Shown here: piece by piece, positions 8,886-63,779 of the stretch
Position numbering within the stretch: position 1 is the stretch's first letter
Layout: every line of letters begins with the position of its first letter
Source: an uncultured Gammaproteobacteria bacterium
GTDB taxonomy: Bacteria > Patescibacteriota > Microgenomatia > Levybacterales > UBA12049
DNA length: 64,000 nucleotides
NCBI GenBank assembly: GCA_964408485.1
Contig: CAYOZJ010000002.1
Span: 69,235-133,234 of the forward strand
Direction of reading: 5' to 3'
Notes under the pieces: model-generated
What the model saw: only the letters and a program-made list of their open reading frames with translations
Told to the model about the DNA's origin: nothing
Database searches by the model: none
Program-made: the position numbers and the translations under genes

Positions 8886-8936
8886 TAGGTTCGACAAGCT
8901 CACTATTTATCCTGAGTTTATCGAAGGATTTCTAAT

Positions 8937-9449
8937 ATGAAAAATATTCTCGCTGTGTCTTTTATTATTCTCTCAGCAGTATTATTAAGGCTTGTTCCGC
9001 ATGTGCCTAACTTTGCGCCGATTGGGGCAATGGCACTTTTTGGAGGAGCCCATCTTCAAAAGCGATATGCATTTTTTCTTCCGTTACTAGTAATGGTTTT
9101 ATCAGATATTTTCTTAGGATTTAGCGCAAGTACGCCTTCGGTATATGTAAGTTTTCTTATTATCGTTGGTATTGGTATGTGGTTGAGAAATCATACCAGC
9201 ATTCAAAATGTAATCGTAGCATCGCTTATATCCTCGACTATCTTTTATCTGCTTACTAATTTTAATTTTTGGTATCCTCAAGCTTTATATCCGCGAACGT
9301 TTTCGGGCATGCTTGATTCCTATATCATGGCCCTTCCATTCTTCAGGCCAACAATATTTGGGGATTTGTTTTATAACGGACTCTTCTTTGGTGGGTATGC
9401 ACTGGTTCAAAAAATTCTTTTCAAACAAGTAAAAGTATATGAGCAGTAA
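8937..9449 (+). CDS. small polytopic membrane protein, possible ECF-type S-component (cobalamin uptake?)
   Basis: 170 aa with ~5-6 hydrophobic helices. Sits between the DUF4430 gene and the PduO-type adenosyltransferase gene. No diagnostic motif. Confidence 0.35.
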   Translation: MKNILAVSFIILSAVLLRLVPHVPNFAPIGAMALFGGAHLQKRYAFFLPLLVMVLSDIFLGFSASTPSVYVSFLIIVGIGMWLRNHTSIQNVIVASLISSTIFYLLTNFNFWYPQALYPRTFSGMLDSYIMALPFFRPTIFGDLFYNGLFFGGYALVQKILFKQVKVYEQ

Positions 9450-9990
9450 GATTTATACTAAAACAGGGGATAAAGGGAAGACATCACTTTTTGATGGGAC
9501 ACGGGTCAGCAAAGATAATATTAGACTTGAAACATATGGCACATTTGATGAGTTGAGTAGTTATCTAGGGGTTGCACAGTCATTTTCGAAAGATAAAAAA
9601 TTAATAAAAGATTTGCAATCTATTCAAAAGGATTTACTTGATATTGGAGCATGCCTTGCAAATCCGCATAACACCCCTAGCAGAACGTTTTTAACGTACC
9701 TTGATGCAAGAGTCATCTCCTTTGAAAAAAGTATTGATGAGCAGACTCAGAAACTTAAACCATTAACTAGCTTTATTCTCTTTACTGGGAATAGTGCTAG
9801 TGCTTTTTTGCAATTGTCTCGTTCTGTTGCAAGACGATCTGAGAGACGACTTACTACTCTTTCTCAGAAAACCCCTATTGCTGCTGAATTTATCCGTTAT
9901 TTTAATAGACTTTCAGATTTACTCTATACCATGGGGCGTTTTGCCAATAGAACAACAAAAAAAGAAGTTATTTGGGAGCCTTTTAAGTAA
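9439..9990 (+). CDS. PduO-type ATP:cob(I)alamin adenosyltransferase
   Basis: N-terminal YTKTGDKGKTSL motif typical of PduO/MMAB family. Confidence 0.85.
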   Translation: MSSKIYTKTGDKGKTSLFDGTRVSKDNIRLETYGTFDELSSYLGVAQSFSKDKKLIKDLQSIQKDLLDIGACLANPHNTPSRTFLTYLDARVISFEKSIDEQTQKLKPLTSFILFTGNSASAFLQLSRSVARRSERRLTTLSQKTPIAAEFIRYFNRLSDLLYTMGRFANRTTKKEVIWEPFK

Positions 9991-14681: not shown

Positions 14682-14754
14682 GGGTCGGTAGCTCAGTTGG
14701 TTAGAGCACTTGTCTTATACACAGGCTGTCGGAGGTTCGAGTCCTCCCCGACCC
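14682..14754 (+). tRNA. tRNA-Ile (anticodon UAU)
   Basis: Cloverleaf folded by hand: acceptor GGGTCGG/CCGACCC, D-arm GCTC..GAGC, anticodon stem CTTGT/ACAGG with loop CTTATAC (U33, anticodon TAT, A37), T-arm GGAGG TTCGAGT CCTCC, discriminator A. No encoded CCA. Confidence 0.75.
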
Positions 14755-14760
14755 ACTGGA

Positions 14761-18145: not shown

Positions 18146-19015
18146 TTAAAGTTCGGTGAGGTGGGTATTTTCTTTTGCTCGGTCCGGGACAAATTCTAAA
18201 TATCTTTCTGTTGTAGAAAGTCTTTTGTGTCCAACAATTTTGGAAAGAAGGACCAACGATACGCCGTGTTTTAAGTGGTGGGCGATAAATGTGTGTCGAA
18301 GGTCATTAACCTTTGCACCTTTAATTTCGGCTAATCTAAAGTATCTTTCAACTGCTGTTCGGATATTTCGGATTAAGAATGGTCTGCCAGATTTGGTAAC
18401 AAAAATTCGCTCTTCAGCAACTGCAGGCCTGCCTTTTATGTATCTTTCCAATGATTCTTTTGCAGACTTATTAATTGGGACAACTCGTTCTTCATGCTTT
18501 TCAAATGGTCGAATGCGAAGACCTTCTGCAAGGACATCGTCCATACGAAGTTCGGCTAATTCGCCAATTCTAATTCCTGTTTGAAGCAAAAGCTCAATAA
18601 CAGCAAACATTCTCACATCATTTCGAGAGGCATCTCTGAGTGCTCGGTATTCTGTAGGTGTCAAAATGCGAGGTGCTGCGAGTGTGTATTGTGGGTGAGC
18701 AACTTGTAACGATGGGTCTTCTGAGACTAACCCTTTAGATTTTAAGAATCGGTAAAATGTGCGGATGGAATTAATCTTTCGGGAAAGGGACTTTGGTGTA
18801 TAACCAGAGCCTGAAAGTTTTGCTAAAAATGCCTCAATGTCTTCTTTTGTGATTCCTTCAATCTCTTTTTTCCCATTTTCTGCCAGAAAAGTAACCAACT
18901 GATCGATGTCTTTGGTGTATGCTACAATGGTAGCGTTTGATCTGGATTTTTCCTTGAGGAAATCGACAAATTGAGTCTTCGCGACGTCTAAAGTGAGTGT
19001 TGCCATAGTGTACAA
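18146..19015 (-). CDS. tyrosine site-specific recombinase, XerC/XerD-like
   Basis: N-terminal SAM-like domain. Catalytic-domain motifs LRHTFIAHHL and HKRLSTTERY (R-H-R-Y). At 289 aa it is Xer-sized. Confidence 0.85.
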   Translation of the reverse strand: MYTMATLTLDVAKTQFVDFLKEKSRSNATIVAYTKDIDQLVTFLAENGKKEIEGITKEDIEAFLAKLSGSGYTPKSLSRKINSIRTFYRFLKSKGLVSEDPSLQVAHPQYTLAAPRILTPTEYRALRDASRNDVRMFAVIELLLQTGIRIGELAELRMDDVLAEGLRIRPFEKHEERVVPINKSAKESLERYIKGRPAVAEERIFVTKSGRPFLIRNIRTAVERYFRLAEIKGAKVNDLRHTFIAHHLKHGVSLVLLSKIVGHKRLSTTERYLEFVPDRAKENTHLTEL

Positions 19016-21835: not shown

Positions 21836-22347
21836 AATTATATTATACTATAAGTTTTAAAGTTGTCAATAAGGGAGTAAAAGGAGCTTGTTTATAACTT
21901 GTGTTGCGGGGCTAGGAGTTGCGCCTAGCCTGTGAGATTATGCATCTGTAATCTCTGATTACTCAGAGTGTCGGACTATATCTTCCAGCCAGTGGCTGGT
22001 TCAGCGTATAGTCTCTACGGGTTCTCACCAAGTGGCGAGTCTTCCCTCGGTATTGTCCTCCGTCAACTGACAGATAGGAGTCCACCGATATAGCTGAATT
22101 CAATTCTCATTATTGCTAATAAGATGGCCCATTATGTTAAGCCTCACGTGCACTGTACACTACCCCGCGTATGAGCATAGTATAGCATTATTTCATTGAT
22201 TTAGCCAGCCTCAATTGGTATACTTAGGGTACTTTCTAGTCACCTGAACTTGATTCAGGATCTCATTTTAAGAATGAGATCCTTCGTTTTACTCAGAATG
22301 ACAGGAGAAGATTGCCACGGAACATTCGTTCCTCGCAATGACGATAC
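21836..22347. other. ~500-bp ORF-free, hairpin-rich region (candidate structured RNA and/or repeat array)
   Basis: No ORF of 60 aa or more on either strand. Several perfect hairpins: GGCTAGGAGTTGCGCCTAGCC, CCAGCCAGTGGCTGG, GATTATGCATCTGTAATC, GATCTCATTTTAAGAATGAGATC. The 3' end carries family repeats (CTCAGAATGACAGG, GATTGCCACG...CCTCGCAATGACG) abutting tRNA. Confidence 0.3.
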
Positions 22348-23253: not shown

Positions 23254-24657
23254 ATGAAGATAAGCGAATTACATACAAAACGAATTGCTATTTTGGGTCT
23301 TGGTGTAGAGGGATTAGCAACGGCACAATATTTTTTAGAACATAAGATTGCCTTTTCCATTATTGATGAAAAGTCATTTACCGAACTTTCTGAAGGAGGG
23401 GATTTAAAGAATGCTTTAGAAAAACTTAAAGAGAATACTATTCCACTCGTTTTGGGAGAAGTTCCCACAAAAGAGCAGCTAGCTCAGTACGATGTACTTG
23501 TAAGAGCACCTGGAATCTCTCTGAAGAAAGATTATCTGCGAGGATTTAGCGGTAGCATTACTTCTGCAACTAAGCTCTTTTTTGACAATTGCCCTGGGAA
23601 AATTATTGGTGTAACAGGGACAAAAGGAAAGGGAACAACCAGCACATTGATCTATGAAATGCTTAAAAGTGCAGGAATCGACGCATATCTTGGCGGCAAC
23701 ATAGGACTGCCTCCATTATCATTTTTGGATACAGTAGATGATCAATCTATTGTTGTTCTGGAGCTTTCTAGTTTTCAATTAGAAGACCTTCAAAAAAGTC
23801 CCCACATTAGTGTCATGCTTATGGTAACGCAGGAACACTTAGACGGTTTTGGAAATCAAAATTATCACAGCTCAATTCGTGAGTATGTTGATGCAAAAAG
23901 AAATATTGTCAGATTCCAAACAGCAGATGATATGGCAATTCTTAATACAGACTATCCTGCCACTACAGAATCAGCTGGTGTTACCTCGGCTCAGGTTGCG
24001 TGGGTGAGTAGATACAAGCCTGTTGGAACAGGGTGCTTTGTGAGAGACAATGAGGTAATTCTTCGCAGCAATAATCAGGAGACCAAAGTAATTGACGCAG
24101 CTGATATTTTTCTTCCTGGAGGACATAATTTAGAAAATATCTGTGCAGCAACTATGGCTGCGTATTTTGCAGGCGTTGATGTTGCTGAAATTGCATCAGT
24201 TCTCAAGACCTTTAAAGGCTTAGAACACCGGTTGGAGTTGGTTAGGGAGTTGGATGGTGTTAGATATTATGACGATTCTTTCTCAACGGTTCCTGAGACT
24301 GCTATTGCTGCAATTCAAGCATTTAGTAATCCAGAAATTTTAATCTTGGGGGGGTCAAGCAAGAAATCAGATTTTACTCAGCTTGGAAAGCTTATTAGCG
24401 AAACACCAAATATAAAAGCAATTATTGGGATTGGAGTAGAATGGCCAGTCATAGAATCAAGAATCAAGAATCAAGAATCAAGAATAAAAATAGTGACAGG
24501 GTTAACAACCATGAAAGATATTGTTGAGACAGTCAGGAAATTAAGTGAGCCAGGAGATGTTGTGCTTCTTTCTCCAGCCTGCGCATCATTTGGGATGTTT
24601 AAGAATTACAAAGACAGAGGCAATCAGTTTAAAGAGCAAGTAAACAAATTAACCTAA
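23254..24657 (+). CDS. murD: UDP-N-acetylmuramoylalanine--D-glutamate ligase (carries in-frame repeat insertion)
   Basis: ILGLGVEGLATAQYF plus GVTGTKGKGTTSTLIYEML. Contains an inserted ESRIKNQESRIKI peptide from a GAATCAA tandem repeat. Confidence 0.9.
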   Translation: MKISELHTKRIAILGLGVEGLATAQYFLEHKIAFSIIDEKSFTELSEGGDLKNALEKLKENTIPLVLGEVPTKEQLAQYDVLVRAPGISLKKDYLRGFSGSITSATKLFFDNCPGKIIGVTGTKGKGTTSTLIYEMLKSAGIDAYLGGNIGLPPLSFLDTVDDQSIVVLELSSFQLEDLQKSPHISVMLMVTQEHLDGFGNQNYHSSIREYVDAKRNIVRFQTADDMAILNTDYPATTESAGVTSAQVAWVSRYKPVGTGCFVRDNEVILRSNNQETKVIDAADIFLPGGHNLENICAATMAAYFAGVDVAEIASVLKTFKGLEHRLELVRELDGVRYYDDSFSTVPETAIAAIQAFSNPEILILGGSSKKSDFTQLGKLISETPNIKAIIGIGVEWPVIESRIKNQESRIKIVTGLTTMKDIVETVRKLSEPGDVVLLSPACASFGMFKNYKDRGNQFKEQVNKLT

Positions 24658-36294: not shown

Positions 36295-37320
36295 TTGTCA
36301 TGGTATACTACAAAGTACATGAAAAAGTTACTTCTGATTGATGGAAATGCCATTTTACACCGTGCATTTCATGCCTATCCACCAGTATTTTCTGACAAAG
36401 AGGGTAATCCTACAAATGCTATTTATGGCTTTTATGCAATGCTTTTAAAAGTTATGGAGGAGGTAAAACCAGATTTACTCACCATTTGCTTTGATCAAGG
36501 TGCGCCGACTTTTCGCATGAATATGTATGCTGGGTATCATGCCAATAGGCCAAAAATGCAGGACACATTGGGAGTACAGGTCGAGCCCTTGCGTGAGTCT
36601 TTGCGTAAAATAGGAATTCCCGTTGAAGCAATCGATGGATATGAAGCAGATGATTTAATTGGGACATTATCTCATCAAGCGTCAAGCGTAAGGCGTAAAG
36701 GGGAAAGTTTGGAAACAATAATCCTAACAGGTGACAGGGATCTTTTGCAGTTAATTAACGAGCATACCAAAGTTCTTATGCCAATAACAGGAATTACGAA
36801 GTCTGTCTTAATGGATGAAGGAGCAGTTGAGGCAAAATACGGCATAAAGGCAAGTCAGGTAATTGATTACAAAGCCTTAGTTGGCGACCCGTCTGATAAC
36901 TATCCAGGTGTTGGGGGAATAGGTCCTAAAACAGCGGCAACACTTCTTAAAGAGTGGGAAACATTGGAGAATTTGTATACCCATTTGGGAGATATAAAAC
37001 CTGAGTTGAGTCAAAAATTAGCTCAAGATGCAGAGCAGGCAATGCTATGCAAGAAGTTGGCAACCATTCAGCTAGACGTACCTGTTCATTTAGATATAAA
37101 GAAAGCAGATGTAGACAATTTTTCTCTGGAAAAGTTTTTGGATATTTTCGAGCACTTCAATATTCACTCATTGGTTAAGAGGCTTAGTCTAGCGCTAGGA
37201 AGTGAAGCACCTATAACACGAAGCGAGACGAAGCAATCTAGTTTAAAGAAAGATTCTGGACAAGCCAGAATGACGAAAGAAGAAAAGAAGAAAGAGGATA
37301 GTCAACTAGAGCTACTTTAG
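36295..37320 (+). CDS. 5'-3' exonuclease (stand-alone Pol I 5'-nuclease/FEN domain) with repeat-derived C-terminal tail
   Basis: LLLIDGNAILHRAFHA and GDRDLLQL, H3TH region. The C-terminal ~40 aa (SETKQSSLKKDSGQARMTKEEKKKED) derive from repeat DNA. Confidence 0.85.
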   Translation: MSWYTTKYMKKLLLIDGNAILHRAFHAYPPVFSDKEGNPTNAIYGFYAMLLKVMEEVKPDLLTICFDQGAPTFRMNMYAGYHANRPKMQDTLGVQVEPLRESLRKIGIPVEAIDGYEADDLIGTLSHQASSVRRKGESLETIILTGDRDLLQLINEHTKVLMPITGITKSVLMDEGAVEAKYGIKASQVIDYKALVGDPSDNYPGVGGIGPKTAATLLKEWETLENLYTHLGDIKPELSQKLAQDAEQAMLCKKLATIQLDVPVHLDIKKADVDNFSLEKFLDIFEHFNIHSLVKRLSLALGSEAPITRSETKQSSLKKDSGQARMTKEEKKKEDSQLELL

Positions 37321-38300: not shown

Positions 38301-38393
38301 AGAAGAAAATTGCTCTATTGCTGAATTACTAAATTGTTCTAGAAAAACAATATAACAATTTAAGAATTTAACAATTAGTATAGTGAGATTGCT

Positions 38394-39446: not shown

Positions 39447-40727
39447 ATGCCTAGAATAGCCCTGGTTCACGATTATATTAAAGAATACGGTGGAGCGGAA
39501 AGGGTACTAGAGACTTTGCATGAAATGTATCCCAATGCACCTGTATTTACCCTAGTATATTGTCCAAAATTCTTAGGACCACATAAAGATAGATTTAAGA
39601 ATTGGGATATCCGCACATCATTTCTTCAGTCTATCCCTTTTAAAGAAAAATTTATTAGCATCTTTCGGCTTTTTGCCCCATTTATTTTTCCATTTTTCAA
39701 CTTTGCTGGGTACGATGTAATCATTGTAAGCGCAACAGGGGCATATAGTCCCAACGTAGTTGGGACAAGAGGTAAGAAGGAAGAGGTAAGAAGTAAGGAA
39801 AGTGACCATACGCCATACGCCATACGCCATACGCCGTATCACATCTGCTACTGCCACACGCCGCCCAGATATTTGTATGGATACGCAACAGCTAGAGAAC
39901 TAAAAAAGAATTCTCTTATTCGATTATTGGCAGAATGGATGAATAAATGGCTTGTGCGAGTAGACAAAAAGTCCAGTAAAAATGTGGATTTGTATATTGC
40001 CAATTCAGAAGAAGTACGAGCACGAATTAAGAAATTTTATAACAAAGATGCAATTGTTGTGTATCCACCAGTTGATGTTCCTTCAGTGTCATTCCTGCGA
40101 AGGCAGGAATCCAGGAAAGGAACTGGATCCCGGATCGGAGTCCGGGATGACAATTTTTATCTAGCAGGCGGGCGTCTTGCCAGGCCAAAGCATTTCGATT
40201 TAATCATCAAGGTAGCAAATGAATTAAAGTTGTCCCTCAAGATTTTTGGGAAAGGATTTGCAGGGTATGGAGAAGAGCTGTATGATTTGGCAAATAGACT
40301 ACAGCAAGCAGACTACAGTAAAGAAGCTGTAGTCGGTAGTCCGAAAGCTGTAAGCGTTATTACGTTTTTGGGAGAAGTAACAGATGAAGAAAAAATACAT
40401 CTTATGTCCGGTGCTAAAGCATTTATTATGAGTAGTGAAGATGAGGATTTTGGCATAACACCAGTTGAGGCAATGGGGGTTGGGACACCGGTGATTGCAT
40501 ATAAGAGTGGTGGACTTAAAGAAACAGTTATTGATGGCAAGACAGGAGTATTTTTTGACATGTTATCTGCAGAAAGTCTAATTGGGGCAATAAAGAAGTT
40601 TGAAGCCCTTCGACAAGCTCAGGGTAAAAGACTGTCTGAGAATTGTATTGCGCAAGCGCAAAAATTTAGCAAAGAGAACTTTGAAAAAGGAATTCGTTCT
40701 GTCATCTCTAAAATCTTGTCATCCTGA
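39447..40727 (+). CDS. glycosyltransferase family 4 (GT1-fold) with multiple in-frame repeat insertions
   Basis: MPRIALVHDYIKEYGGAERV N-terminus and C-terminal EDFGITPVEAMGVGTPVIA (E-x7-E region). Inserted peptides EEVRSKESDHTPYAIRHTPYH and SFLRRQESRKGTGSRIGVRDD. The stop lies inside a GTCATCCTGAG repeat. Confidence 0.8.
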   Translation: MPRIALVHDYIKEYGGAERVLETLHEMYPNAPVFTLVYCPKFLGPHKDRFKNWDIRTSFLQSIPFKEKFISIFRLFAPFIFPFFNFAGYDVIIVSATGAYSPNVVGTRGKKEEVRSKESDHTPYAIRHTPYHICYCHTPPRYLYGYATARELKKNSLIRLLAEWMNKWLVRVDKKSSKNVDLYIANSEEVRARIKKFYNKDAIVVYPPVDVPSVSFLRRQESRKGTGSRIGVRDDNFYLAGGRLARPKHFDLIIKVANELKLSLKIFGKGFAGYGEELYDLANRLQQADYSKEAVVGSPKAVSVITFLGEVTDEEKIHLMSGAKAFIMSSEDEDFGITPVEAMGVGTPVIAYKSGGLKETVIDGKTGVFFDMLSAESLIGAIKKFEALRQAQGKRLSENCIAQAQKFSKENFEKGIRSVISKILSS

Positions 40728-40942
40728 GCTTGCGAAGGATATATTCTTCACTTTGTTTAGAATGACAAAGGAAAAAGATTTCTCACTTCGTTCGAAATGA
40801 CACTCTTCTTACTTATTTCTAACCTCCTCTTACACAATATTAATTGTAATTTCATTTAAGAGTTCTATCCTGTCAGGAAGCTGTTGGGGAATCGTTGGCC
40901 ATAGGTCAAGTTAAAGATTCTCTGCAGGAATATAATTAGCTT

Positions 40943-42776: not shown

Positions 42777-43997
42777 ATGATCCTCAGGTCAATTCTTCTT
42801 CAGCATTTTCGCAATTATACCCAGGAAAAGTTTGATTTTTCAGAAACTCTCACTCTTATTATTGGAGTAAATACTGCCGGTAAAACCAATCTTTCTGAGG
42901 CAATATATTTACTTGCAACAGGGAAGAGTTTTAAGGCAGGTAATGATACATTTATGATTGCTTTTGGACAAGAGATTGCAAGGGTGGGAGGATTGCTGGA
43001 AGATGTCATCCCCGACCAGATCGGGGATCCAGGAAAAGAACTGGATTCCCGCTTTCGCGGGAATGACAGTAAAAAAAAGGATGACGGTTTGGACAAGACT
43101 AAAATAGAAGTAGTTATCGCCAGTCCTCAGGCAACTGGAGGGAGATTTAGCAAGAAATTTCTTATAAATGGTGTTGGAAAATCGCGGAATAGTTTGCGAG
43201 GTATGCTCCCAATTGTCCTTTTCCGGCCTGAAGAATTGGACATTATTATTGATGGACCAAGTCTCAGGCGCGCATTTCTTAATGAAGTACTTGAGCAGGC
43301 AGATAAAGAATATGCCCAAGCATTATCTGTCTTCGAACGGTCTCTTAGGCAGCGCAATGCGCTTCTTCGTATAGCTCAGGAGACTGGAAAACGAAATAGT
43401 GAGCAATTTGATTATTGGGACGAGCTTCTTATTGAGAGTGGGCAGACAATTACACAAAAGCGTGAAGAATTTTTGGTATTTATCAATTCATCCACTCATG
43501 ATATTTTTCCTTTACAGACTTTTTTCGATAAGAGTATTATTTCTCGCGAACGGTTAGATGGATATGAGATGGCAGAAGTCGGGGCAGGGGTGACCCTTGT
43601 AGGGCCTCACAGAGATGATTTCTTTGTGAACATGGAATATCCTGGTTTTAATCCCAACCCTCATCCCAGCTCGCCGAGGCAAGCTGACCTTCTCCCAAAA
43701 GGAGAAGGAGAACAAGGTGATATCCACTACGTGGATATACGATTTTTCGGTTCGAGGGGGCAGCAGAGACTTGCAGTGCTCCAGTTAAAAATGCTCCAAA
43801 TACAGTATTTGGAAAAGAAACTAGGAGTATTGCCACTTCTTATCTTGGATGATATTTTTTCTGAATTAGATAGTAACCATATTCAGCTTGTTTTGGATAA
43901 CGTGAAAGGATGCCAAATCATTCTAACCACAACGCATAGGGAGTTTATTCCACAAAAGGTATTACGTGAGGCTAGTGTGGTAGAATTAGAGCGATAA
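42777..43997 (+). CDS. recF: DNA replication and repair protein RecF with in-frame palindromic-element insertions
   Basis: MILRSILLQHFRNY, Walker A GVNTAGKTNLSEAIY and C-terminal LILDDIFSELD. Inserted VIPDQIGDPGKELDSRFRGNDSKKKDDG. Confidence 0.85.
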   Translation: MILRSILLQHFRNYTQEKFDFSETLTLIIGVNTAGKTNLSEAIYLLATGKSFKAGNDTFMIAFGQEIARVGGLLEDVIPDQIGDPGKELDSRFRGNDSKKKDDGLDKTKIEVVIASPQATGGRFSKKFLINGVGKSRNSLRGMLPIVLFRPEELDIIIDGPSLRRAFLNEVLEQADKEYAQALSVFERSLRQRNALLRIAQETGKRNSEQFDYWDELLIESGQTITQKREEFLVFINSSTHDIFPLQTFFDKSIISRERLDGYEMAEVGAGVTLVGPHRDDFFVNMEYPGFNPNPHPSSPRQADLLPKGEGEQGDIHYVDIRFFGSRGQQRLAVLQLKMLQIQYLEKKLGVLPLLILDDIFSELDSNHIQLVLDNVKGCQIILTTTHREFIPQKVLREASVVELER

Positions 43998-44093
43998 TTG
44001 TTATATTGTTATCGCTCGCAATGCTCGCTTATTGTTACATGGTTAACAATTTAGCCATATAGCAATTTAGCAATTTTTTAACGCAGTTAGTCT

Positions 44094-44972
44094 ATGCAAC
44101 AATTTGACATAAAACAACTGAAACAGCTTTACATTCCACCAGCTGGATCTCATAAAGGGGACAATGGAAAGGTTATGGTTATTGGCGGAAGTCAGCTTTT
44201 TCATGCTGCATCACTTTGGTCTTTGGAAATTGCATCAAAAATTGTAGATATGGTTTTTTACTCATCAGTTGATGCAAACAATGCACTCGTTGAAAAAGAA
44301 AAGGAAGCATTTAGAAATGGGATTATTGTTCCAAGAAATAAAATTGAAGATTACATTGCAGAGGCAGATAGCGTACTTATTGGGCCAGGATTACCAAGAG
44401 AGAATGGCTACGAGGCAGGCGATGACGATACAAAAATTCTCACCGAAAAACTTCTTAAAAAATATCCCAATAAGCGATGGGTAATTGATGGTGGTAGTTT
44501 GCAGGTGATTAACCCTGACCTTATTCCACAAAATGCTATTCTTACGCCACATCATCAAGAATTTGAAAGACTGTTTGGAAAGCGTCAAGCGTCAAGCGTC
44601 AAGCGTAAAGGAGAGAAAGAGATTGCCGCGGTCGCTAAAGACTCCCTCGCAATGACGGTTGGGGAGATGGCAAAGAAATATCACTGTATTGTTTTACTGA
44701 AAGGTCCAGAAGATGTTGTTTGTTCGGAAAATGAATGTGTAAGAGTTCCGGGAGGTAATGCAGGTATGACAAAAGGTGGAACAGGAGATGTGCTTGCAGG
44801 GCTTACAGCAGCTTTATATTCCCAAAACGCTGACGCATTCTTAGTAGCAACTTCTGCAAGCTATATCAATAAAAAAACAGGTGAGTCTCTTTTTGAAAAA
44901 CAAGGCTATTACTTTAACTCAAGTGATTTAGTGAAGGAAATCCCAGGAGTCATGAAAGAATTACTGCTCTAA
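44094..44972 (+). CDS. ADP-dependent NAD(P)H-hydrate dehydratase / YjeF C-terminal carbohydrate-kinase-like domain protein
   Basis: GDNGKVMVIGGSQLFHAASL and GGTGDVLAG. Carries the insertion KRQASSVKRKGEKEIAAVAKDSLAMTVGE. Confidence 0.75.
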   Translation: MQQFDIKQLKQLYIPPAGSHKGDNGKVMVIGGSQLFHAASLWSLEIASKIVDMVFYSSVDANNALVEKEKEAFRNGIIVPRNKIEDYIAEADSVLIGPGLPRENGYEAGDDDTKILTEKLLKKYPNKRWVIDGGSLQVINPDLIPQNAILTPHHQEFERLFGKRQASSVKRKGEKEIAAVAKDSLAMTVGEMAKKYHCIVLLKGPEDVVCSENECVRVPGGNAGMTKGGTGDVLAGLTAALYSQNADAFLVATSASYINKKTGESLFEKQGYYFNSSDLVKEIPGVMKELLL

Positions 44973-45354: not shown

Positions 45355-46407
45355 ATGTATACCCCAACCTACACAATAAGCAATACAATCCTTCGTAATA
45401 TTGGTCTTATTGAGGCTGCAAAACAGGTAATTGATAGCGCTCCACTTCTTCCGTACTATGAAAAGAAATTTCGCGACGATGCTATGGTAAGAGCTGTCCA
45501 TTATGGCACGCATATTGAAGGAAACGAACTGTCACTCAATCAGGCAGAAAAAGTTTTGTCTGGTCAGATTGTTGACGCACGCGACCGAGATATTCAAGAG
45601 GTCTTAAATTATCGAAAGGTTATGGAGATGATCGGTTCATCGGAAATCGGGAATCGGGAATCGGGAATTGACGAAGAACTTATTTTTAAACTCCATAAGC
45701 TTACAGTCACTAAAGTTTTACCCGAAGAGCAGTCTGGTAATTATCGAAAAACAAAGGTAGTTATTCGCAATAGCCGCAGTGCAGAAGTAGTATTTACGCC
45801 GCCTTCTCCTGAGGAAGTAGCTGGACAAATGAGTGATTTTATTGCATTTATACAAACTCAGTCAGGTCAAGATATTCATCCAATATTGAAATCTGGAATT
45901 GTTCATTATGAATTCGTGAGAATTCATCCGTTTGTCGATGGAAATGGTCGGGTAGCACGGGCACTCTCGACTCTTATTCTTTTTTTGGAAGGGTATGACA
46001 TTCGACAGTTTTTCTCTTTGGAAGAATACTTTGATAAAGATGCTCTCAGCTATTACGAGGCACTGCAAAGTGTTGGGAAAAATAATGGAGACGTGACAAA
46101 TTGGCTTGAGTATTTTACTCATGGTCTTGCCTATGAGTTGGGAAGAATCCGGGAAAGAGTAGAGCATGTATCTGTAGATAATAGGCTTAAGCAGCGACTT
46201 GGTGGCAAGCCAATGATGCTGACAGACAGGCAGTTGAGGATTGTTGAATATATTCAAGAAACAGGTTTTCTGCAAAATCAAGCATTTAAAGAATTATTTC
46301 CAATGATTTCTGAAGACGCAGTGCTTTTGGATTTAAAAGAACTAGTTAAAGCTGGTCTTATTAAGAAATCAGGTGTCACTAAGGGCGCAAGGTATGTGAT
46401 GAGCTAA
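45355..46407 (+). CDS. Fic family protein (AMPylase-type) with C-terminal wHTH
   Basis: Fic motif HPFVDGNGRVARAL. Contains inserted IGNRESGI repeats from GAATCGG heptamers. Confidence 0.85.
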   Translation: MYTPTYTISNTILRNIGLIEAAKQVIDSAPLLPYYEKKFRDDAMVRAVHYGTHIEGNELSLNQAEKVLSGQIVDARDRDIQEVLNYRKVMEMIGSSEIGNRESGIDEELIFKLHKLTVTKVLPEEQSGNYRKTKVVIRNSRSAEVVFTPPSPEEVAGQMSDFIAFIQTQSGQDIHPILKSGIVHYEFVRIHPFVDGNGRVARALSTLILFLEGYDIRQFFSLEEYFDKDALSYYEALQSVGKNNGDVTNWLEYFTHGLAYELGRIRERVEHVSVDNRLKQRLGGKPMMLTDRQLRIVEYIQETGFLQNQAFKELFPMISEDAVLLDLKELVKAGLIKKSGVTKGARYVMS

Positions 46408-47730: not shown

Positions 47731-49521
47731 ATGACCTTTGCGAAATTAGCCTCGTATTTTGAAAAATTAGAAGCAACTTCCTCCCGTTTAGAGCTTATCC
47801 GTATTCTCTCAGAACTCTTCAAAGAAATAAAAACTCCAGATGAAATAGAAAAGGTATGTTATTTGGTTCAGGGTCGTATTGCGCCATTTTTTGAAGCAAC
47901 AGAAATCGGAATGGCAGAACGGACTGTGGCACAGTCCGTTGCTACAGCATTTAATGTCGAAAAAGAGAAAGTCTTAAAAGAATATAGTAAGCGTGGAGAT
48001 TTAGGGTTGGTTACGTATGAGCTTGCGCAAGAAGTAAGAAGTAAGAATTATGAATCAAGAATAACCATAGATGAGGTGTTTGAAACTTTAATAAAAATAG
48101 CAAAGACTAGTGGGGAAGGAACTGTTGAAAAACGACTAACATTATTAACAGATCTTTTGCAAAAAGTAGACGCACTTTCAGCAAAGTTTCTTGTACGCAT
48201 TCCACTAGGTAATCTTCGTTTGGGAATTGGTGACCCAACTGTTTTAGATGCACTCGCGACAGTAAAATTGGGAGATAAAACCCAGCGACATTATTTAGAA
48301 GATGCATACAATAGGACATCTGACTTAGGACTTATTGCAAAAACTCTTTGGTCAGAAAAAAGCGCAATGAAAGCATTGGGTGCAGTCGAAAAATTAGAAG
48401 TAACAGTTGGTAAGCCAATTCGAAGCGAATTGTGCGAGCGTCTTCCTAGTCCTGAAAAAACAATAGAAAAAATGGGGACAGTGGATTCACAGTTTAAATA
48501 CGATGGATTTCGCGTACAAATTCATAAAAATGGAAATGAAATCTCGCTTTTTTCTCGTAATTTAGAAAATATGACCCATATGTTTCCAGAGCTTATAGAG
48601 GGAGCCAAGAGACAAATTAAAGCGCGTAGCGCAATTCTGGATAGCGAAGCATTAGCATACATACCTGAGTCTGAAGAATTTTTGCCTTTCCAGGAGACAA
48701 CAAAACGAAGACGTAAGCATAATATAGAAGAAACAATGGCCAAGCTTCCACTTAAGTCATTTGTTTTTGACATTTTGTATAAAGATGGCAAGTCACTTAT
48801 TGGCGAACCTTTAGAAAAGCGTTTGGAGATTTTGTCAAAAACCCTTCGGCCAGCTCAGGGCAAGCAGTTTAACGATAGTGTTCTTTTTCCAGCAGATACT
48901 AAAAAGATTTCTGATGCAAAGGTGTTATCTCTTATGCTTGATGACGCAATTTCTAAAGGCTTAGAGGGAATAGTAGTAAAGAAATTGAATAGTCTTTACG
49001 AAGCAGGCGCGCGCAATTTTAACTGGGTAAAGCTAAAGCGTAACCAGTCTGGTGAGTTAACAGATACGGTTGACTGTGTGATTTTAGGATACATTTTTGG
49101 CAAAGGAAAGCGAACAGCATTTGGCGCAGGAGCATTATTGGTTGGTGTGTATGATAAAGCATCAGATAGCTTTGTAACAGTAAGTAAGATTGGAACAGGA
49201 TTAACTGATGAGGAGTGGAAAAGTATTAAGGAAAGGACAAAAGGATTAGAACTTTCTCATAAGCCAGCTCGGGTGAGCTCTATTATAGAACCAAGTGTTT
49301 GGGTAAAGCCTGAGATTGTTATAGAGGTCTTGGCAGATGAGATTACAAGAAGTCCTATTCATACAGCAGGAGCTACTTTGGAGAACGGAAAAGTCGTTGA
49401 GCCAGGATATGCTCTCAGATTTCCACGGTTAGTTAACTTTCGGGATAAAGATAAAAAATCAGAAGATGCAACGGATGTGAAAGAGTTGATTGAAATGTAT
49501 AAGAGTCAAGGAAAGAAGTAG
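47731..49521 (+). CDS. ATP-dependent DNA ligase
   Basis: Adenylation motif KYDGFRVQIH (KxDG), OB domain. Inserted heptamer-derived QEVRSKNYESRI. Confidence 0.85.
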   Translation: MTFAKLASYFEKLEATSSRLELIRILSELFKEIKTPDEIEKVCYLVQGRIAPFFEATEIGMAERTVAQSVATAFNVEKEKVLKEYSKRGDLGLVTYELAQEVRSKNYESRITIDEVFETLIKIAKTSGEGTVEKRLTLLTDLLQKVDALSAKFLVRIPLGNLRLGIGDPTVLDALATVKLGDKTQRHYLEDAYNRTSDLGLIAKTLWSEKSAMKALGAVEKLEVTVGKPIRSELCERLPSPEKTIEKMGTVDSQFKYDGFRVQIHKNGNEISLFSRNLENMTHMFPELIEGAKRQIKARSAILDSEALAYIPESEEFLPFQETTKRRRKHNIEETMAKLPLKSFVFDILYKDGKSLIGEPLEKRLEILSKTLRPAQGKQFNDSVLFPADTKKISDAKVLSLMLDDAISKGLEGIVVKKLNSLYEAGARNFNWVKLKRNQSGELTDTVDCVILGYIFGKGKRTAFGAGALLVGVYDKASDSFVTVSKIGTGLTDEEWKSIKERTKGLELSHKPARVSSIIEPSVWVKPEIVIEVLADEITRSPIHTAGATLENGKVVEPGYALRFPRLVNFRDKDKKSEDATDVKELIEMYKSQGKK

Positions 49522-49874: not shown

Positions 49875-51374
49875 ATGGTTGATGTTGTTGCAGATTTACA
49901 TCTGCATTCTCGTTTCTCCAGAGCGGTTAGTCCTCAAATGACTCCTCCCACAATGGCACAATTTGGAGACCAGAAAGGGATAGATCTTTTGGCAACAGGA
50001 GACTGGACACATCCGGTATGGTTTCGGGAAATCAGCAACTTTCTCACAGAAGCAGAAGAAGGACTGTATAAAATCAAGAATCCAACTCCCCAAAATGAAA
50101 AGACACGATTTCTTCTTTCTGTAGAAATTGCCTCTATTTATTCCCAAGGAGGGAAGGGAAGAAGGATTCACAACTTAGTATTTGTTCCATCCTTCGAAGT
50201 GGCAGCAAAAGTAAATAAAGAGCTGATAAAACGCGGATTTAATTTATCTTCTGACGGGAGGCCAATCATAGGATTTTCCTCAAAGAATTTACTTTCACTT
50301 CTCCTTGAAGTAGATGAGCGGTGTCTTCTTATTCCCGCTCATGTCTGGACGCCATGGTTTGGCATTTACGGACAGATGTCTGGGTTTCAAAGTCTTGCGG
50401 AAGCATTTGAAGAATTAGCACCAAAGATTTATGGAATAGAGACAGGTCTTTCAAGTGATCCGGAGATGAATTGGCAAGTTGATGAGCTAAAGACAAGGTC
50501 AATTCTTAGCTTTTCTGATGCACATTCTCCTGCGAAAATGGGGCGAGAAGCAACGGTTTTTCGCTTGGACAGCTTGTCTTATGAGAATATTCGTCAAGCA
50601 ATAATGGCGCCAAGCCTTCGTTCCGTCATTGCGAGCAAAGCGAAGCAATCTAATATAAATAAGGAGAAGATTGCCACGTCGCAAGCTCCTCGCAATGACA
50701 ATGTTAATAAAGTACTCTACACCATAGAATTTTATCCAGAAGAGGGGAAGTACCATTATTCAGGCCATAGAAATTGCGGAATTACCATGACGCCACAAGA
50801 GCAAGCAGCAGCGCATAATATTTGTCCTGTATGTAAAAGGTCTCTTACCGATGGGGTTATGAGACGTGTTCAGGAACTCGTAGAAAAGGACCCTTCGGCA
50901 TCGGTTCGGCAAGCTCACGACGAGGGCTCAGGGCAAGGTCCCTTTGGAAGTCATACGCCTAATAAAAGTGGCCTTGTCTGGATAACAGACCCTAAAGAAA
51001 ATCGTCCACCATTTGTCAAAATAGTACCGCTCCAGGAAATAATTAGTGAGGCAATTGGGAGTCCTTTTGCAAGCCCGAAGGTAAAAGTAATCTTCGATAT
51101 GCTCTGTAAAGACGGACTCTCTGAATTTAATGTACTCCTTAAATTGCCCTTACCAGATATTGAGCGAATAAGTCTTAGTATTACTTCAAAAGAATTTGCT
51201 GAAAAAATTACTGATGGAATAAAGAAAGTACGTGCAGAGCAAATTGTGATTAAGCCAGGATACGACGGTGTATTTGGGGTAGTAAAGATTTGGAGTGATG
51301 AGAATGACAGTGAAAACCCTTCGACTTCGCTCAGGGAAAAAGATACTGAAGAGCAGATTGGATTAGAGTTTTAG
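49875..51374 (+). CDS. Endonuclease Q (EndoQ)-like PHP-domain nuclease with zinc finger
   Basis: DLHLHSRFSRAVSPQMT PHP N-terminus, LIPAHVWTPWFGIYG, SFSDAHSPAKMGREAT, KYHYSGHRNCGI and CPVCKRSL zinc finger, RPPFVKIVPLQEII. All are collinear with archaeal EndoQ as I recall it. Confidence 0.7.
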   Translation: MVDVVADLHLHSRFSRAVSPQMTPPTMAQFGDQKGIDLLATGDWTHPVWFREISNFLTEAEEGLYKIKNPTPQNEKTRFLLSVEIASIYSQGGKGRRIHNLVFVPSFEVAAKVNKELIKRGFNLSSDGRPIIGFSSKNLLSLLLEVDERCLLIPAHVWTPWFGIYGQMSGFQSLAEAFEELAPKIYGIETGLSSDPEMNWQVDELKTRSILSFSDAHSPAKMGREATVFRLDSLSYENIRQAIMAPSLRSVIASKAKQSNINKEKIATSQAPRNDNVNKVLYTIEFYPEEGKYHYSGHRNCGITMTPQEQAAAHNICPVCKRSLTDGVMRRVQELVEKDPSASVRQAHDEGSGQGPFGSHTPNKSGLVWITDPKENRPPFVKIVPLQEIISEAIGSPFASPKVKVIFDMLCKDGLSEFNVLLKLPLPDIERISLSITSKEFAEKITDGIKKVRAEQIVIKPGYDGVFGVVKIWSDENDSENPSTSLREKDTEEQIGLEF

Positions 51375-51950: not shown

Positions 51951-52002
51951 TTTGTTTATAAACAAATAAAAAAAGGATACGGTGAAAACCTGTGTCCTTT
52001 TT

Positions 52003-52235
52003 TGTCATTTCGAACAAAGCGAGAAATCTCATTCAAGTATTTTTCTTCTTCTGTACTTTTGTGCCGACAAAAGATACCAAAAACTCTCGCCAAGGTCTTG
52101 TTCGAGCTTTCAAAAAAGAGCTCCAAAGCTAAAAGTACGCAGTTCGCTTTCACTTTCTTTACGCTTTTATGCCCTTTTTCTTATGCACTCACTGCAAATT
52201 GGCGAATAAGAACCATTTACATGAGGAGTATAATA
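52003..52235 (+). repeat. ~200-bp dispersed repeat copy A (upstream of pth)
   Basis: Near-identical core to 63530..63745 (..CTCTCGCCA.G..CTTGTT..AGCTTTCAAAAAAGAGCT.CAAAGCTAAAAGTACGCAGTTCGCTTTCACTTTCTT.ACGCTTTT..). Confidence 0.7.
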
Positions 52236-52241
52236 AGACAT

Positions 52242-53858: not shown

Positions 53859-53930
53859 TTGGGTCATCCTGGCTTGTCCAGGATCTAGATTCTGGATGCG
53901 CTTTGCTTACCAGAATGACAGGAGAATTTT

Positions 53931-54858: not shown

Positions 54859-54895
54859 TTATTAGTTGATTAACGGGTTAATGTGTTAACGAGTT

Positions 54896-55285
54896 ATGAA
54901 AATAACCAAATTTGAAGACCTCGATGTTTGGAAATTAAGTTTAGAGATAACAAAGTTAATATACGATCTAACATCTAAGAAATTATTTTCTCAAGATTAC
55001 GGTTTAAAGGATCAAATAAGAAGGGCAATTGTATCTGTTAGTTCTAATATTGTTGAGGGGTTTGAAAAAAACAATAATAATGAATTTATTAGGTATCTTC
55101 TGATTGCGAAGGGATCTGTTGGGGAGGTAAGGAATCAATTGTATGTGGCTTTAACAGTACAATACATTTCTCGAGATGAGTTTGAACAAATTAATCCAAA
55201 GCTTTTTATATTAGCAGATCAAATTGGTAGGTTTGTTATTTATTTAAAGACGAAACGAAATAACAAAGAATTCCAAACCCGTTAA
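54896..55285 (+). CDS. four-helix-bundle protein (TIGR02436 / 23S rRNA IVS protein / Avd-like)
   Basis: FEDLDVWKLSLEITKLIY...SNIVEGF...LLIAKGSVGEVRNQL signature of the family. Start and stop codons lie inside flanking palindromic repeat arms. Confidence 0.8.
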   Translation: MKITKFEDLDVWKLSLEITKLIYDLTSKKLFSQDYGLKDQIRRAIVSVSSNIVEGFEKNNNNEFIRYLLIAKGSVGEVRNQLYVALTVQYISRDEFEQINPKLFILADQIGRFVIYLKTKRNNKEFQTR

Positions 55286-55304
55286 CCCGTGAACTCGTTA
55301 ATTA

Positions 55305-57687: not shown

Positions 57688-57817
57688 GTGTCATCCTGAG
57701 CAAGCTAGAGGATATATTCTTTCCCGACTCGGGACTAGGTTCGCAGAACCGTTGCACACGTTCAGAATGACAATAGGACTGGATCCCGGATCGGAGTCCG
57801 GGATGACAAATTAATAT

Positions 57818-62327: not shown

Positions 62328-62484
62328 AATAAAGAGTATACCGAGTTCTTAACAAATATGTCAAGAAACAAAAGCATATTTCTATTGCTAAATTACTATA
62401 TTGCTAAATTGTTATTAACAATATAAGAATTTGTTAATTTAACAATTTCGTTTTACTCAATGTGACAGTTGTTTGTAATACTAC

Positions 62485-63504
62485 ATGTATAGTAATGTAA
62501 AAGGTATGAGTAAAATAATCTTCTTTGAAGTACAAGAGTGGGAAAAGGAATTTTTAGAAAAAGCATTTGGGGAAAGGGCAGTGTTAACCGATAAAACATT
62601 AGATGCAACAAATGTTTTGGAATATAAAGACATAGAAATTGCTTCTTGTTTTCGAAATTCAACTTTTAATAAACAAGTTTTAGACCAGCTTCCTCATTTA
62701 AAATATATTACAGCTCGCGCAACAGGATTTGACCAGATAGATATTGCGTATTGCACAGAAAAGGGAATCGTTGTGAGTAATGTGCCAGCATATGGAGTGC
62801 ATACTGTTGCCGAGCATGCTTTTACGCTTATGCTTGCTTTAGCAAAAAAACTTATTCCCTCAATTGAGCGTACACGAAAAGGGGATTTCAGCCTGAAAGA
62901 TCTCATGGGAATAGATTTAAATACTAAAACACTTGGTATTGTTGGTGCGGGGAAGATTGGAACAGCGGTTATTCATATTGCCAGATGTTTTGGTATGCAT
63001 ATACTCATTCTTAAGCATCACGATGAAATAAGTGAAAATAGTAACATAGAATATGTTGATTTACCCACACTTCTGAAAAGATCTGATTTTGTTACACTCC
63101 ATTTGCCCCTTACCCAACAGACAAAACATATTATTAATAAGCAAAATATTAAAGAGTTTAAAAAGGGGTCGTACCTTATTAATACAGCTCGGGGAGGACT
63201 TATTGAAACAGAGGCAATTTTGGATGGACTGGAGAGTGGAATTTTGGCAGGAGTAGGACTTGATGTATTGGAAGATGAGAAAATGATTAGTGAAGAAGGG
63301 GAATTATTATCTAACAAGCCGCTACATGAGCATCCATCGGGGACAGAAAGAATTGAAATGGAGCTTCTTAAAAGAGACGATGTGCTCATAACTCCCCATA
63401 AAGCTTTTTATACACAGGAAGCAGTACACGAGCTTTTGGAAGTAACGAAAGAAAATATAGAGAAGTTTGAAAAAGGCGAGCCACAGAATGTTGTAGAAAG
63501 TTAA
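62485..63504 (+). CDS. D-isomer-specific 2-hydroxyacid dehydrogenase family protein
   Basis: NAD-binding GIVGAGKIGTAV and catalytic region ...TLHLPLT...NTARGGL. Confidence 0.85.
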   Translation: MYSNVKGMSKIIFFEVQEWEKEFLEKAFGERAVLTDKTLDATNVLEYKDIEIASCFRNSTFNKQVLDQLPHLKYITARATGFDQIDIAYCTEKGIVVSNVPAYGVHTVAEHAFTLMLALAKKLIPSIERTRKGDFSLKDLMGIDLNTKTLGIVGAGKIGTAVIHIARCFGMHILILKHHDEISENSNIEYVDLPTLLKRSDFVTLHLPLTQQTKHIINKQNIKEFKKGSYLINTARGGLIETEAILDGLESGILAGVGLDVLEDEKMISEEGELLSNKPLHEHPSGTERIEMELLKRDDVLITPHKAFYTQEAVHELLEVTKENIEKFEKGEPQNVVES

Positions 63505-63529
63505 CAGAAGCTTGATTCAGTCTCCTTTC

Positions 63530-63745
63530 ATTGTCATTTCGAACAAAATGAGAAATCTTTTCTTTTTAACTTCTCTTGTACCGACAAGAGAAGCAGAAGC
63601 TCTCGCCAGGCCTTGTTCCAGCTTTCAAAAAAGAGCTTCAAAGCTAAAAGTACGCAGTTCGCTTTCACTTTCTTAACGCTTTTCCGCTCTTTTTCTCTCG
63701 CAGTCACAGCGGATTGGCGAATAAAGACCGCGGAAAATTTACCTC
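63530..63745 (+). repeat. ~200-bp dispersed repeat copy B (upstream of partial ORF at 63780)
   Basis: See copy A at 52003..52235. Confidence 0.7.
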
Positions 63746-63779
63746 ATAGTTGTTGACTTTTTTCAAAAAGAGAGTAGAA

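Follow-up and report, generated by a model that had tools for sequence, protein, structure and literature searches.

Closest described systems and the insert in yjeF

The closest described counterpart of the repeat treated here is the NTS of Neisseria meningitidis, a sequence of 28 nt defined as CGTCATTCCCGCGMAVGCGGGAATCYRG, whose generalised form is the Ssn-related motif (SRM) (Chenal et al. 2025, Nat Commun, PMC11893778). Its partner SsnA is a small GIY-YIG protein with one domain, which binds the hairpin solely in the form of single-stranded DNA (ssDNA) and cuts upstream of it; the 3 nt 5' of the palindrome mainly determine cleavage, and the C directly 3' of the palindrome matters most for binding (Chenal et al. 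2025). Cleavage of ssDNA and modulation of transformation have been shown in Neisseria, the NTS-ssnA-NTS architecture "is identical to" that of insertion sequences, and two questions were left open, namely the role of the repeats outside Neisseria and whether NTS-ssn-NTS is mobile (Chenal et al. 2025). Here we analyse a 64-kb stretch of DNA (the window) from an ultra-small bacterium (Levybacteria) of the Candidate Phyla Radiation (CPR), in which the yjeF gene, for a dehydratase of NAD(P)HX, carries an in-frame insert composed of a heptamer array and a hairpin-repeat unit of ATTGC type. We consider it likely, at a probability of roughly 65%, that this insert is a decaying remnant of a gene-less repeat element and a tolerated passenger in a disordered loop of the enzyme.

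The hairpin units of the window share with the NTS/SRM-Ssn system the directional arrangement of GTC, palindrome and C, the bracketing of small GIY-YIG genes, and the occurrence in many copies across phyla. They differ in standing as gene-less inverted pairs in frame in CPR housekeeping genes, in forming recurrent hot spots mixed with heptamer arrays, and in including an ATTGC subtype that lies outside the SRM pattern. Chenal et al. (2025) mention neither the CPR, nor in-frame or intragenic copies, nor tandem arrays, and the literature searched, on palindromic or in-frame repeats of the CPR, on heptamer and STRR repeats and on work after the Ssn paper, gave no description of in-frame CPR copies, of such hot spots, or of their pairing with heptamer arrays.

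Palindromic elements in reading frame are known from Rickettsia, itself among the SRM-rich genera (Chenal et al. 2025). As summarised in a later article, the Rickettsia palindromic elements (RPE) lie in frame in unrelated metabolic and housekeeping genes and are compatible with the protein fold (Ogata et al. 2000, per PMC10969869). Our locus resembles them in its in-frame palindromic inserts, found here in the genes for YjeF, endonuclease Q (EndoQ), RecF, a GT4 glycosyltransferase and a 5'-3' exonuclease, and in belonging to a reduced-genome organism that depends on a host. Compared by description only, RPE measure about 100-150 bp and encode family-specific conserved peptides, whereas the modules of the window measure about 60-110 bp, have variable stems and are read in different frames; neither hot-spot turnover nor heptamer arrays figure in that summary.

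Anatomy and ancestry of the insert

The host gene is an open reading frame (ORF) of 292 amino acids (44094..44972, plus strand) that scores 128.4 bits with Pfam Carb_kinase (PF01256; E=4e-37), for which the cut-off is 27, and also exceeds the curated cut-off of TIGR00196, yjeF_cterm (159.7 against 129.85 bits). Homologues of its product come from Candidatus Levybacteria and other Patescibacteria and are named NAD(P)H-hydrate dehydratase, and its relatives in the PDB are 2ax3, 3bgk and 1kyh. To go by these profiles, it is an ADP/ATP-dependent NAD(P)HX dehydratase of the YjeF C-terminal or Carb_kinase type. An earlier reading of this DNA from its letters alone (the sequence-only reading) had called the gene YjeF-like, as the two profiles now affirm, and had seen an in-frame insertion in it. 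The comparison with orthologues that it had proposed bears this out: in an alignment of 120 homologues and in 80 orthologous loci, taken from a species-representative genome set, with the insert site locatable in 61, the window's protein is about 19 residues longer than empty orthologues. The latter read EFExLFG-VEGTEESC-EMAKKY and have 34 residues between two alignment anchors, where the window has 19 more. The zero frame is open throughout the insert, which encodes the peptide KRQASSVKRKGEKEIAAVAKDSLAMTVGE. In an AlphaFold2 model built with the orthologue alignment as input (predicted template modelling score, pTM, 0.84), the predicted local distance difference test (pLDDT) drops under 50 at residues 164-181 exactly, a segment set between the helices 154-161 and 176-195 and away from the conserved GGTGD motif; this surface loop is predicted to be disordered.

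Within the insert, the heptamer array has GTCAAGC three times without error (44584-44604) and after it a degenerate GTAAAGG, and each heptamer contains CGTCA, the terminal motif of the element. A short linker then leads to the ATTGC-type unit and resembles AAGGAGAAG, which precedes the other two GATTGCC copies of the window, as well as the tail of a paralogous element at 36672-36710. On the minus strand the unit reads GTC-ATTGC-GAGGGAGTCTTTAGCGACCGCG-GCAAT-CT, of which only a 5-bp outer stem is left. The stretch quoted by the sequence-only reading does stand on the plus strand, at 44581-44658; the end that it gave, 44660, adds a further TT, and its EndoQ copy is off by one (50661-50701). Its description of a heptamer array joined to a dispersed palindromic module agrees with the results of Tandem Repeats Finder and of a pattern search.

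Three matches to the bipartite pattern GATTGCC-N(8-30)-CGCAATGAC lie in the window (22310, 44621 and 50669, all on the plus strand), as against 0 expected from dinucleotide-preserving shuffles. A MAFFT alignment of the three copies has a mean column identity of 76%, and pairwise identity over the coordinates originally proposed is 65-69%, where 300 shuffles peak at 59-61%. The right half of the insert is thus homologous to the copy in the EndoQ gene and to the copy upstream of tRNA-Met, as the sequence-only reading had maintained with 60% as its lower limit; its EndoQ label is supported too, since the NCBI name for homologues is "endonuclease Q family protein" and TIGR00375 also has a match in the ORF. 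The three copies are alike at their ends (AGATTGCC.CG and CCTCGCAATGAC) and differ in the sequence and length of their interior. One may argue from this variable interior, and from the low complexity of the heptamers, that the similarity arose by chance, by slippage or low-complexity expansion, or as an assembly artefact. This is effectively refuted by the count of the bipartite pattern, by pairwise identities above all shuffles and by an orthologous copy in another genome (L003, below); in addition, the identical YjeF protein is encoded by two independent Logan assemblies and by an NCBI contig, which makes an assembly artefact unlikely.

The ancestry of the insert is best seen in L003, a Patescibacteria metagenome-assembled genome whose YjeF has 73% protein identity and 71% DNA identity to that of the window. 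At the same codon it has GTCATTGCGAGCGAAAGCGAAGCAATC-ttccccgatgg-GATTGCCACGGTCGCTGATCGCTCCCTCGCAATGAC, a complete, gene-less palindromic module bounded by GTCAT...ATGAC that folds as ssDNA at -23 kcal/mol (z=-5.4). The right arm of this module (2019-2054) aligns without a gap to window positions 44621-44656, with 31 of 36 nt identical, and the 44 nt to the left of it are equal in length and unrelated in sequence in the two genomes. An unrelated left side of equal length beside an orthologous right arm indicates that the left arm was replaced in one lineage. On this alignment, the right arm is inherited from an ancestor common to L003 and the window, which would have gained a complete ATTGC-type double module at this codon of YjeF; the lineage of the window would have kept the right arm, and its left arm is the one exchanged, without change in length, for the heptamer-array element and the A/G-rich linker. 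The statement that the stretch shows recombination between arrays and modules therefore holds in part, in that the left arm was replaced relative to L003; recombination as the cause is plausible rather than demonstrated, and the event could as well have been an amplification in tandem, on the spot, of the element's own CGTCA terminus. What had been overlooked altogether is the NTS/SRM-like repeat family, the loss of the palindrome in the YjeF copy, and the nature of the site as a recurrent insertion nest.

That the array-bearing variant can also be copied is shown, at the level of sequence, by the paralogous element mentioned above, a near-copy of about 38 nt (CAAGCGTCAAGCGTAAGGCGTAAAGGGGAAAG) in a 5'-3' exonuclease gene (36295..37320; Pfam 5_3_exonuc_N), read in the same frame (QASSVRRKGE). 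A scan of metagenome contigs for the array element CAAGCGTCAAGCGTNANGCGTAAAGG gave 0 matches. (GTCAAGC)x3 was found in 13 IMG/VR contigs, and these were set aside as unrelated simple repeats since they hold long intergenic arrays without GTCAT modules.

Little secondary structure is left in the YjeF copy. As ssDNA the unit (44620-44656) folds at -3.8 kcal/mol (z=+0.62), the array has no folding of its own, the whole composite of array and unit has no fold either (z=+0.08), and folding of the stretch as RNA and as DNA, for both strands, brought out no significant structure. With no significant fold on either strand, readings as a terminator, attenuator or frameshift signal were dropped; a -1 programmed frameshift in particular does not fit, as GTCAAGC is not slippery (X XXY YYZ is required), no stable structure lies downstream and the zero frame is open. 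Rfam at its gathering thresholds gave no match to the modules and found only two tRNAs and an AdoCbl-II riboswitch in the window. The long palindrome being gone, the YjeF copy is probably inert; it looks like a dead remnant, ordinary within its genome.

It might nonetheless be supposed that the insert is kept for a nucleic-acid role, either as an Ssn site that limits recombination of incoming ssDNA or as an mRNA hairpin for stability or translation. The right arm retains its 31 of 36 identities between yjeF genes that are 71% identical, units are frequent at gene ends and in intergenic DNA, and NTS/SsnA modulates transformation in N. meningitidis (Chenal et al. 2025). Such a role is nevertheless quite unlikely, in view of the missing DNA and RNA folds and Rfam match, of a site that is empty in 24 of the 61 loci where it could be located and holds unrelated sequences in others, and of the flanking upstream 36 nt of ordinary coding sequence, which are even more conserved (34/36).

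Hairpin units and their link to GIY-YIG genes

The window contains, by our count, some 18 units built as GTC + AT-palindrome-AT + C(Y), 10 or 11 of them inside ORFs, with stems of the types ATTGCGAG, ATTCCCGC, ATCCCCGA, ATTCCTGC, ATCCCGGA, ATTCTGG, ATCCTGG and ATTTCGAAC. Complete inverted pairs bounded by TGTCAT...ATGACA stand in frame in three genes, those for RecF, the GT4 glycosyltransferase and EndoQ (Table 1). The recF and GT4 modules have a common spacer, AGGAAARGAACT, together with different stems and different reading frames (VIPDQIGDPGKELDSRFRGND versus VSFLRRQESRKGTGSRIGVRDD), which speaks for conservation of the DNA rather than of the peptide. In the units of the window the GTC before and the C after the palindrome are invariant, and these are the same positions that determine cleavage and binding by Ssn. 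Both are present in the YjeF unit on the minus strand, where GTC directly precedes ATTGC and GCAAT is directly followed by C and then T (44621-44620). The published SRM pattern, HGTCWYN(0-2)YYVSBRHN(0-5)WNVSBRGN(0-2)RNCYNB, is matched by four units of the window (two in recF, one in the GT4 gene and that at 57779-57808), as against 0.08 expected. The unit at 57779..57808 is identical to its counterpart at 40122-40156 over the 27-nt unit. The right unit of recF equals the NTS consensus with one mismatch, and the recF unit resembles the Neisseria dRS3 repeat, which is counted among the NTS/SRM repeats and is a known target of a phage recombinase (Chenal et al. 2025).

Outside the window, such units bracket GIY-YIG genes. 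In two Jacksonbacteria loci (L354/L355) a GIY-YIG gene of 98 aa lies between ATTGC-type units, the left one reading GTCATTGCGAG...GAAGCAATCT and the right one GATTGCTTCG...CTCGCAATGAC, and in two further CPR loci (L353, L356) and two IMG/VR contigs (L277, L085) the gene is likewise bracketed, with other stems. A Levybacteria relative (L004), whose YjeF is 68% identical to that of the window, has a 92-aa GIY-YIG gene (PF01541, 2.6e-18) between recF and yjeF, bounded by GTCATTCTGG...AGAATCTC and GATCCT...CCAGGATGAC with GTCAT...ATGAC as the outer boundary; it is the only one of the 80 orthologous loci with such a gene. The two proteins scanned, from L004 and L277, both match PF01541, and the PDB holds no close relative of the CPR protein. 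In every GIY-YIG locus examined (L004, L085, L277, L353, L354/355, L356), the outer side of the bracket carries GTCAT to the left and ATGAC to the right. The gene-less modules have this same outer boundary and are related to the GIY-YIG cassette as a MITE (a miniature transposable element with inverted repeats) is to an insertion sequence. At a further locus (L256, 835-945), three tandem units, each with a stem of its own (ATTTCGAAC, ATTCCGAAC and ATGCTGAAC), come after a GIY-YIG gene, so one nuclease gene can adjoin several unit families.

These comparisons suggest what the YjeF insert may once have been. An intact element would be an inverted pair of hairpin units bounded by (T)GTCAT...ATGAC(A), each unit consisting of GTC, a palindrome that starts and ends in AT, and C, which is the directional signature of NTS/SRM; the double module would represent the two ends of an SRM-ssn-SRM cassette minus its gene, in the manner of a MITE. 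The copies would be made or spread by an Ssn-type nuclease that acts in trans.

Several observations weigh against reading the insert as a remnant of such an element. The YjeF unit, with its 5-bp stem and z=+0.62, lacks the ssDNA hairpin of 20-50 nt that belongs to the NTS/SRM signature, an absence that we read as decay of this copy. Neither it nor any other ATTGC-type unit of the window matches the published SRM pattern, so membership is not established by the published definition. The 64 kb contain no GIY-YIG gene (tblastn and hidden Markov model search) and no transposase (Pfam on all ORFs of at least 90 aa), only a XerC/D-like integrase. The activities shown for Ssn are only the cutting of ssDNA and, in Neisseria, the modulation of transformation, and its part in transposition or copying is inferred. 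Moreover, the right arm ranks among the top 7% of 36-nt windows for conservation, so that some constraint is possible, and many orthologues keep an insert of similar length, which may reflect weak selection for a longer YjeF loop.

Another enzyme could also have moved the units. They might be REP/REPIN-like or MITE/PATE-like and mobilised by a RAYT, an IS200/IS605 Y1, an IS110-type or a Xer enzyme, with an incidental association to GIY-YIG genes, for example if the hairpins are targets and not ends. Repetitive extragenic palindromic (REP) sequences, BIMEs and REPINs, which go together with RAYT transposases, are like our units in being short imperfect palindromes with an orienting 5' motif, in forming inverted doublets as a long hairpin, in building mosaic clusters and in bracketing a single-copy gene. 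The mixed-unit cluster at 40690-40830, tandem arrays in two IMG/VR contigs (L119, L094), the XerC/D-like integrase gene, the use of Neisseria dRS3 by a phage recombinase and the failure of the ATTGC type to match the SRM pattern all sit well with this view. It is unlikely all the same, as the 5' motif is GTCAT and not the GTAG or GGAG of REPs, the flanked genes encode GIY-YIG proteins and not a Y1 (HUH) transposase, and all GIY-YIG loci examined are bracketed by units whose boundaries are those of the gene-less modules. No Y1_Tnp match was found by Pfam among the ORFs of the window, which have no DDE transposase either. In addition, REPs are almost always extragenic, unlike the in-frame units described here. 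Integron attC sites (R''/R' cores) and dif/Xer sites were set aside as well, as their core sequences do not fit GTCAT...ATGAC.

Insertion nests and heptamer arrays

Units recur in identical form in many contigs. The exact 25-mer of the recF unit was found in 95 IMG/VR contigs, that of a unit at the YjeF site of another orthologous locus (L055) in 42, and the pattern GATTGCC...CTCGCAATGAC in at least 120 contigs, sometimes as tandem arrays. Such exact identity across unrelated contigs indicates that the units come from a shared pool, not from drift in place. The 152 distinct GATTGCC units compared have constant ends and an interior of 8 to 29 nt, which often includes an extra G+C hairpin; an interior stem of at least 4 bp is present in 44% of them versus 14% of shuffles. 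A second exact copy of the same 12-mer terminus lies within 3.8 kb in two of the six orthologous loci with full modules. Two G+C-rich IMG/VR contigs (L119, 2670-2860; L094, 11383-11520) have three to five GGATTGCCACGGGCTTCGCCCTCGCAATGAC units in tandem, with the starts of successive units 37-54 nt apart, and the L119 array ends directly before a ribosome-binding site and start codon.

At the YjeF loop, at least 10 module types begin at the same position, with GTCAT directly after F-x-x, two codons past a conserved LF. Their peptides read VIAS.., VILSEAKNP, VIPNSFRDL, VILRQSRRIP, VILRPKAEES, VILSPSTPLRV.., VIPSPAKQGEE, VIPAPRPSEAL.., VILGTQSEAW.. and VILNSFQDL, and five of the six modules with DNA available start at exactly the same nucleotide. 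Other occupants of the site are heptamer arrays (AATTTCA, GAATCAA, AAAGTCA, AAAATTA and others), an inverted array pair that folds (L060, z=-5.1), and small G+C-rich palindromes nested in arrays (L013, L020, L059). When the insert columns are left out of the alignment, the resulting neighbour-joining tree has alleles with and without an insert intermixed, and the nearest neighbours of the window are empty. The EndoQ loop between AIMAPS and NKVLYTIEFYPEEGK likewise has varied occupants across orthologues. Unrelated modules that start at an identical position suggest that new elements enter at, or replace from, the ends of resident ones, and selection for permissive loops explains why inserts survive at the YjeF and EndoQ sites.

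The turnover at this site also bears on whether the insert is an adaptive feature of the protein, that is, a selected, fast-evolving surface loop serving as an interaction or localisation tag, with the repeat DNA as mere raw material. An excess of 12-19 residues persists here in over half of the orthologues, the encoded peptide KRQASSVKRKGEKE is charged, and for Rickettsia it has been proposed that palindromic elements in reading frame give rise to new protein segments (PMC10969869). This explanation is very unlikely, however: the peptides at the site are not related to one another, the same DNA units are read in other frames elsewhere in coding sequence and also occur between genes, the loop is predicted to be disordered, and empty alleles are interspersed with filled ones. 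The low pLDDT of the loop, the 24 empty loci and the different frames of the modules point instead to a passenger, one that is presumably neutral for the enzyme.

Heptamer arrays are a second recurrent component. Eight period-7 arrays with a Tandem Repeats Finder score of at least 40, plus three of period 14, were found in the window, as against 0 in 20 second-order Markov simulations, and 8 of the 13 arrays listed lie in ORFs (for a MurD-like ligase, 5'-3' exonuclease, GT4, YjeF, Fic and DNA ligase). Apart from those in yjeF and the exonuclease gene, in-frame arrays stand in the genes for the MurD-like ligase (24448-24500), GT4 (39767-39845), Fic (45639-45672) and an ATP-dependent DNA ligase (48029-48062). 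The first reads GTCAT(AGAATCA)x4.7...GTGACAGG; that of GT4 reads GTGAC(CATACGC)x4 CGTATCAC at 39801-39845; and that of Fic is (ATCGGGA)x4.3 with the end GGGAATTGAC. These three are bounded by GTCAT/GTGAC-like or GGGAAT-TGAC motifs, and the DNA ligase array has no bounding motif. We hypothesise that arrays arise by tandem amplification of a unit terminus or of a 7-nt half-stem; an amplified half-stem would explain the array period of 7-8, which matches stem length. Two of the 13 arrays adjoin a unit in window coordinates, which is weakly suggestive and was not relied on.

Tandem heptamer arrays are not peculiar to this lineage. Heptanucleotide STRR arrays, along with small dispersed repeats, occur in cyanobacteria and are like our arrays in the lineage-specific units and in hairpins of about 15-27 nt nested in arrays (here in L013, L020 and L059; proteins P0018, P0072, P0076 and P0120). 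The likeness is one of description, and the systems differ in phylum and in that the arrays treated here stand in frame and share sites with GTCAT-bounded modules.

Table 1. Repeat features of the yjeF insert and related elements in the window
Feature	Coordinates	Strand	Basis or remark
Whole in-frame insert, about 76 bases	44580..44656	+	Codons K163-T188; alignments and AlphaFold2 model
Heptamer array	44580..44610	+	Tandem Repeats Finder: period 7, 4.4 copies of AAGCGTC, 95% matches
Linker TAAAGGAGAGAAAG, short, A/G-rich	44606..44619	+	Resembles AAGGAGAAG
ATTGC-type hairpin-repeat unit, putative right arm of former double module	44620..44656	-	Pattern search; orthology with L003
Paralogue of array element, CAAGCGT CAAGCGT AAGGCGT AAAGGGGAAAG	36672..36710	+	In frame, 5'-3' exonuclease gene
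Complete ATTGC-type double module (left 50625-50651, right 50668-50699)	50625..50699	+	In frame, endonuclease Q gene 49875..51374
ATTGC-type unit, intact two-tier hairpin	22309..22342	-	5 nt upstream of tRNA-Met; DNA fold z=-2.25
Double module in recF	43004..43068	+	In frame; both units match SRM pattern; folds z=-2.6 and z=-5.8
Double module in GT4 glycosyltransferase gene	40087..40152	+	In frame; spacer as in recF module
Intergenic double module, ATCCTGG / ATTCTGG stems	53863..53919	+	Unit census
Intergenic single unit	57779..57808	-	Matches SRM pattern; 97% identical to 40122-40156 over 35 nt

Further repeats accompany those of Table 1. A second unit near tRNA-Met lies at 22270-22300, and immediately downstream of the GT4 gene (40690-40830) stand four tandem GTCAT/ATGAC units with mixed stems, a cluster that resembles a mosaic of BIME or NIME type. 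Two copies of a repeat some 230 nt long (52000-52240 and 63530-63760) have a 122-nt core that is 87% identical (52093-52214 versus 63608-63729). Both copies open with a TGTCATTTCGAAC hairpin unit, and the first fills an apparent N-terminal extension of a peptidyl-tRNA hydrolase ORF, in which the Pfam domain starts only at residue 83. A Logan contig (L359) stops 6 nt past the stop codon of a 2-hydroxyacid dehydrogenase gene, about 22 nt before the unit at 63532 (window 63504-63532); that short-read contigs of the same organism end beside hairpin units is consistent with units breaking assemblies.

A family of intergenic octamer arrays (TTAGCAAT / AACAATTT) occupies 38306-38376, 44043-44076, which is immediately upstream of the yjeF start, and 62376-62448; the stretches 44044-44074 and 62384-62414 are 94% complementary. 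Inverted octamer arrays (54868-55303; left TTAACGGG TTAATGTG TTAACGAG, right AACCCGTT AACCCGTG AACTCGTT) also enclose a gene of the 23S-rRNA-intervening-sequence-protein family (54896..55285; PF05635), an arrangement that resembles a small cassette.

Among other features of the window, the riboswitch of AdoCbl-II type (8093-8165; Rfam 44.3 bits) lies upstream of ORFs for DUF4430, DUF6580 and a cobalamin adenosyltransferase (8157-9990), and genes for a TraG/VirD4-like coupling ATPase and the XerC/D-like tyrosine recombinase stand at 12271-14640 and 18146-19015. A tRNA-Ile gene (14682-14756) has the anticodon TAT; AUA codons in bacteria are usually read by a CAT anticodon modified to lysidine.

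Beyond the YjeF copy itself, these loci raise a broader and more tentative idea, namely that a GIY-YIG ssDNA nuclease drives SRM-ssn-SRM cassettes as genuine mobile elements. In this idea, MITE-like derivatives with two hairpins and no gene would insert or convert at the ends of resident elements and so make long-lived nests, with exchange of occupants, in coding loops of CPR housekeeping proteins, and the abundant heptamer arrays would be by-products, a 7-nt half-stem or terminus being amplified in tandem once the foot of the hairpin has been nicked. We regard it as possible, though less likely than not. If true, it would amount to a novel type of mobile element, based on ssDNA, by which CPR proteins are reshaped. 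The first description of the Ssn/NTS system dates from 2025, and orthologue comparisons among Levybacteria bear on both questions left open there: with one full cassette in 80 loci, gene-less versions that differ in stem at identical codons, and interspersed empty alleles, mobility and turnover are directly testable.

For the organisms themselves, the finding implies that a noticeable share of the length variation and of the "low-complexity loops" in CPR housekeeping proteins is translated repeat DNA, the proteins affected here being YjeF, EndoQ, RecF, GT4, the 5'-3' exonuclease, the MurD-like ligase, DNA ligase and Fic. Such translated repeats affect the annotation, alignment, structure prediction and phylogenomics of the CPR, and they extend the RPE phenomenon of Rickettsia to another lineage with reduced genomes.

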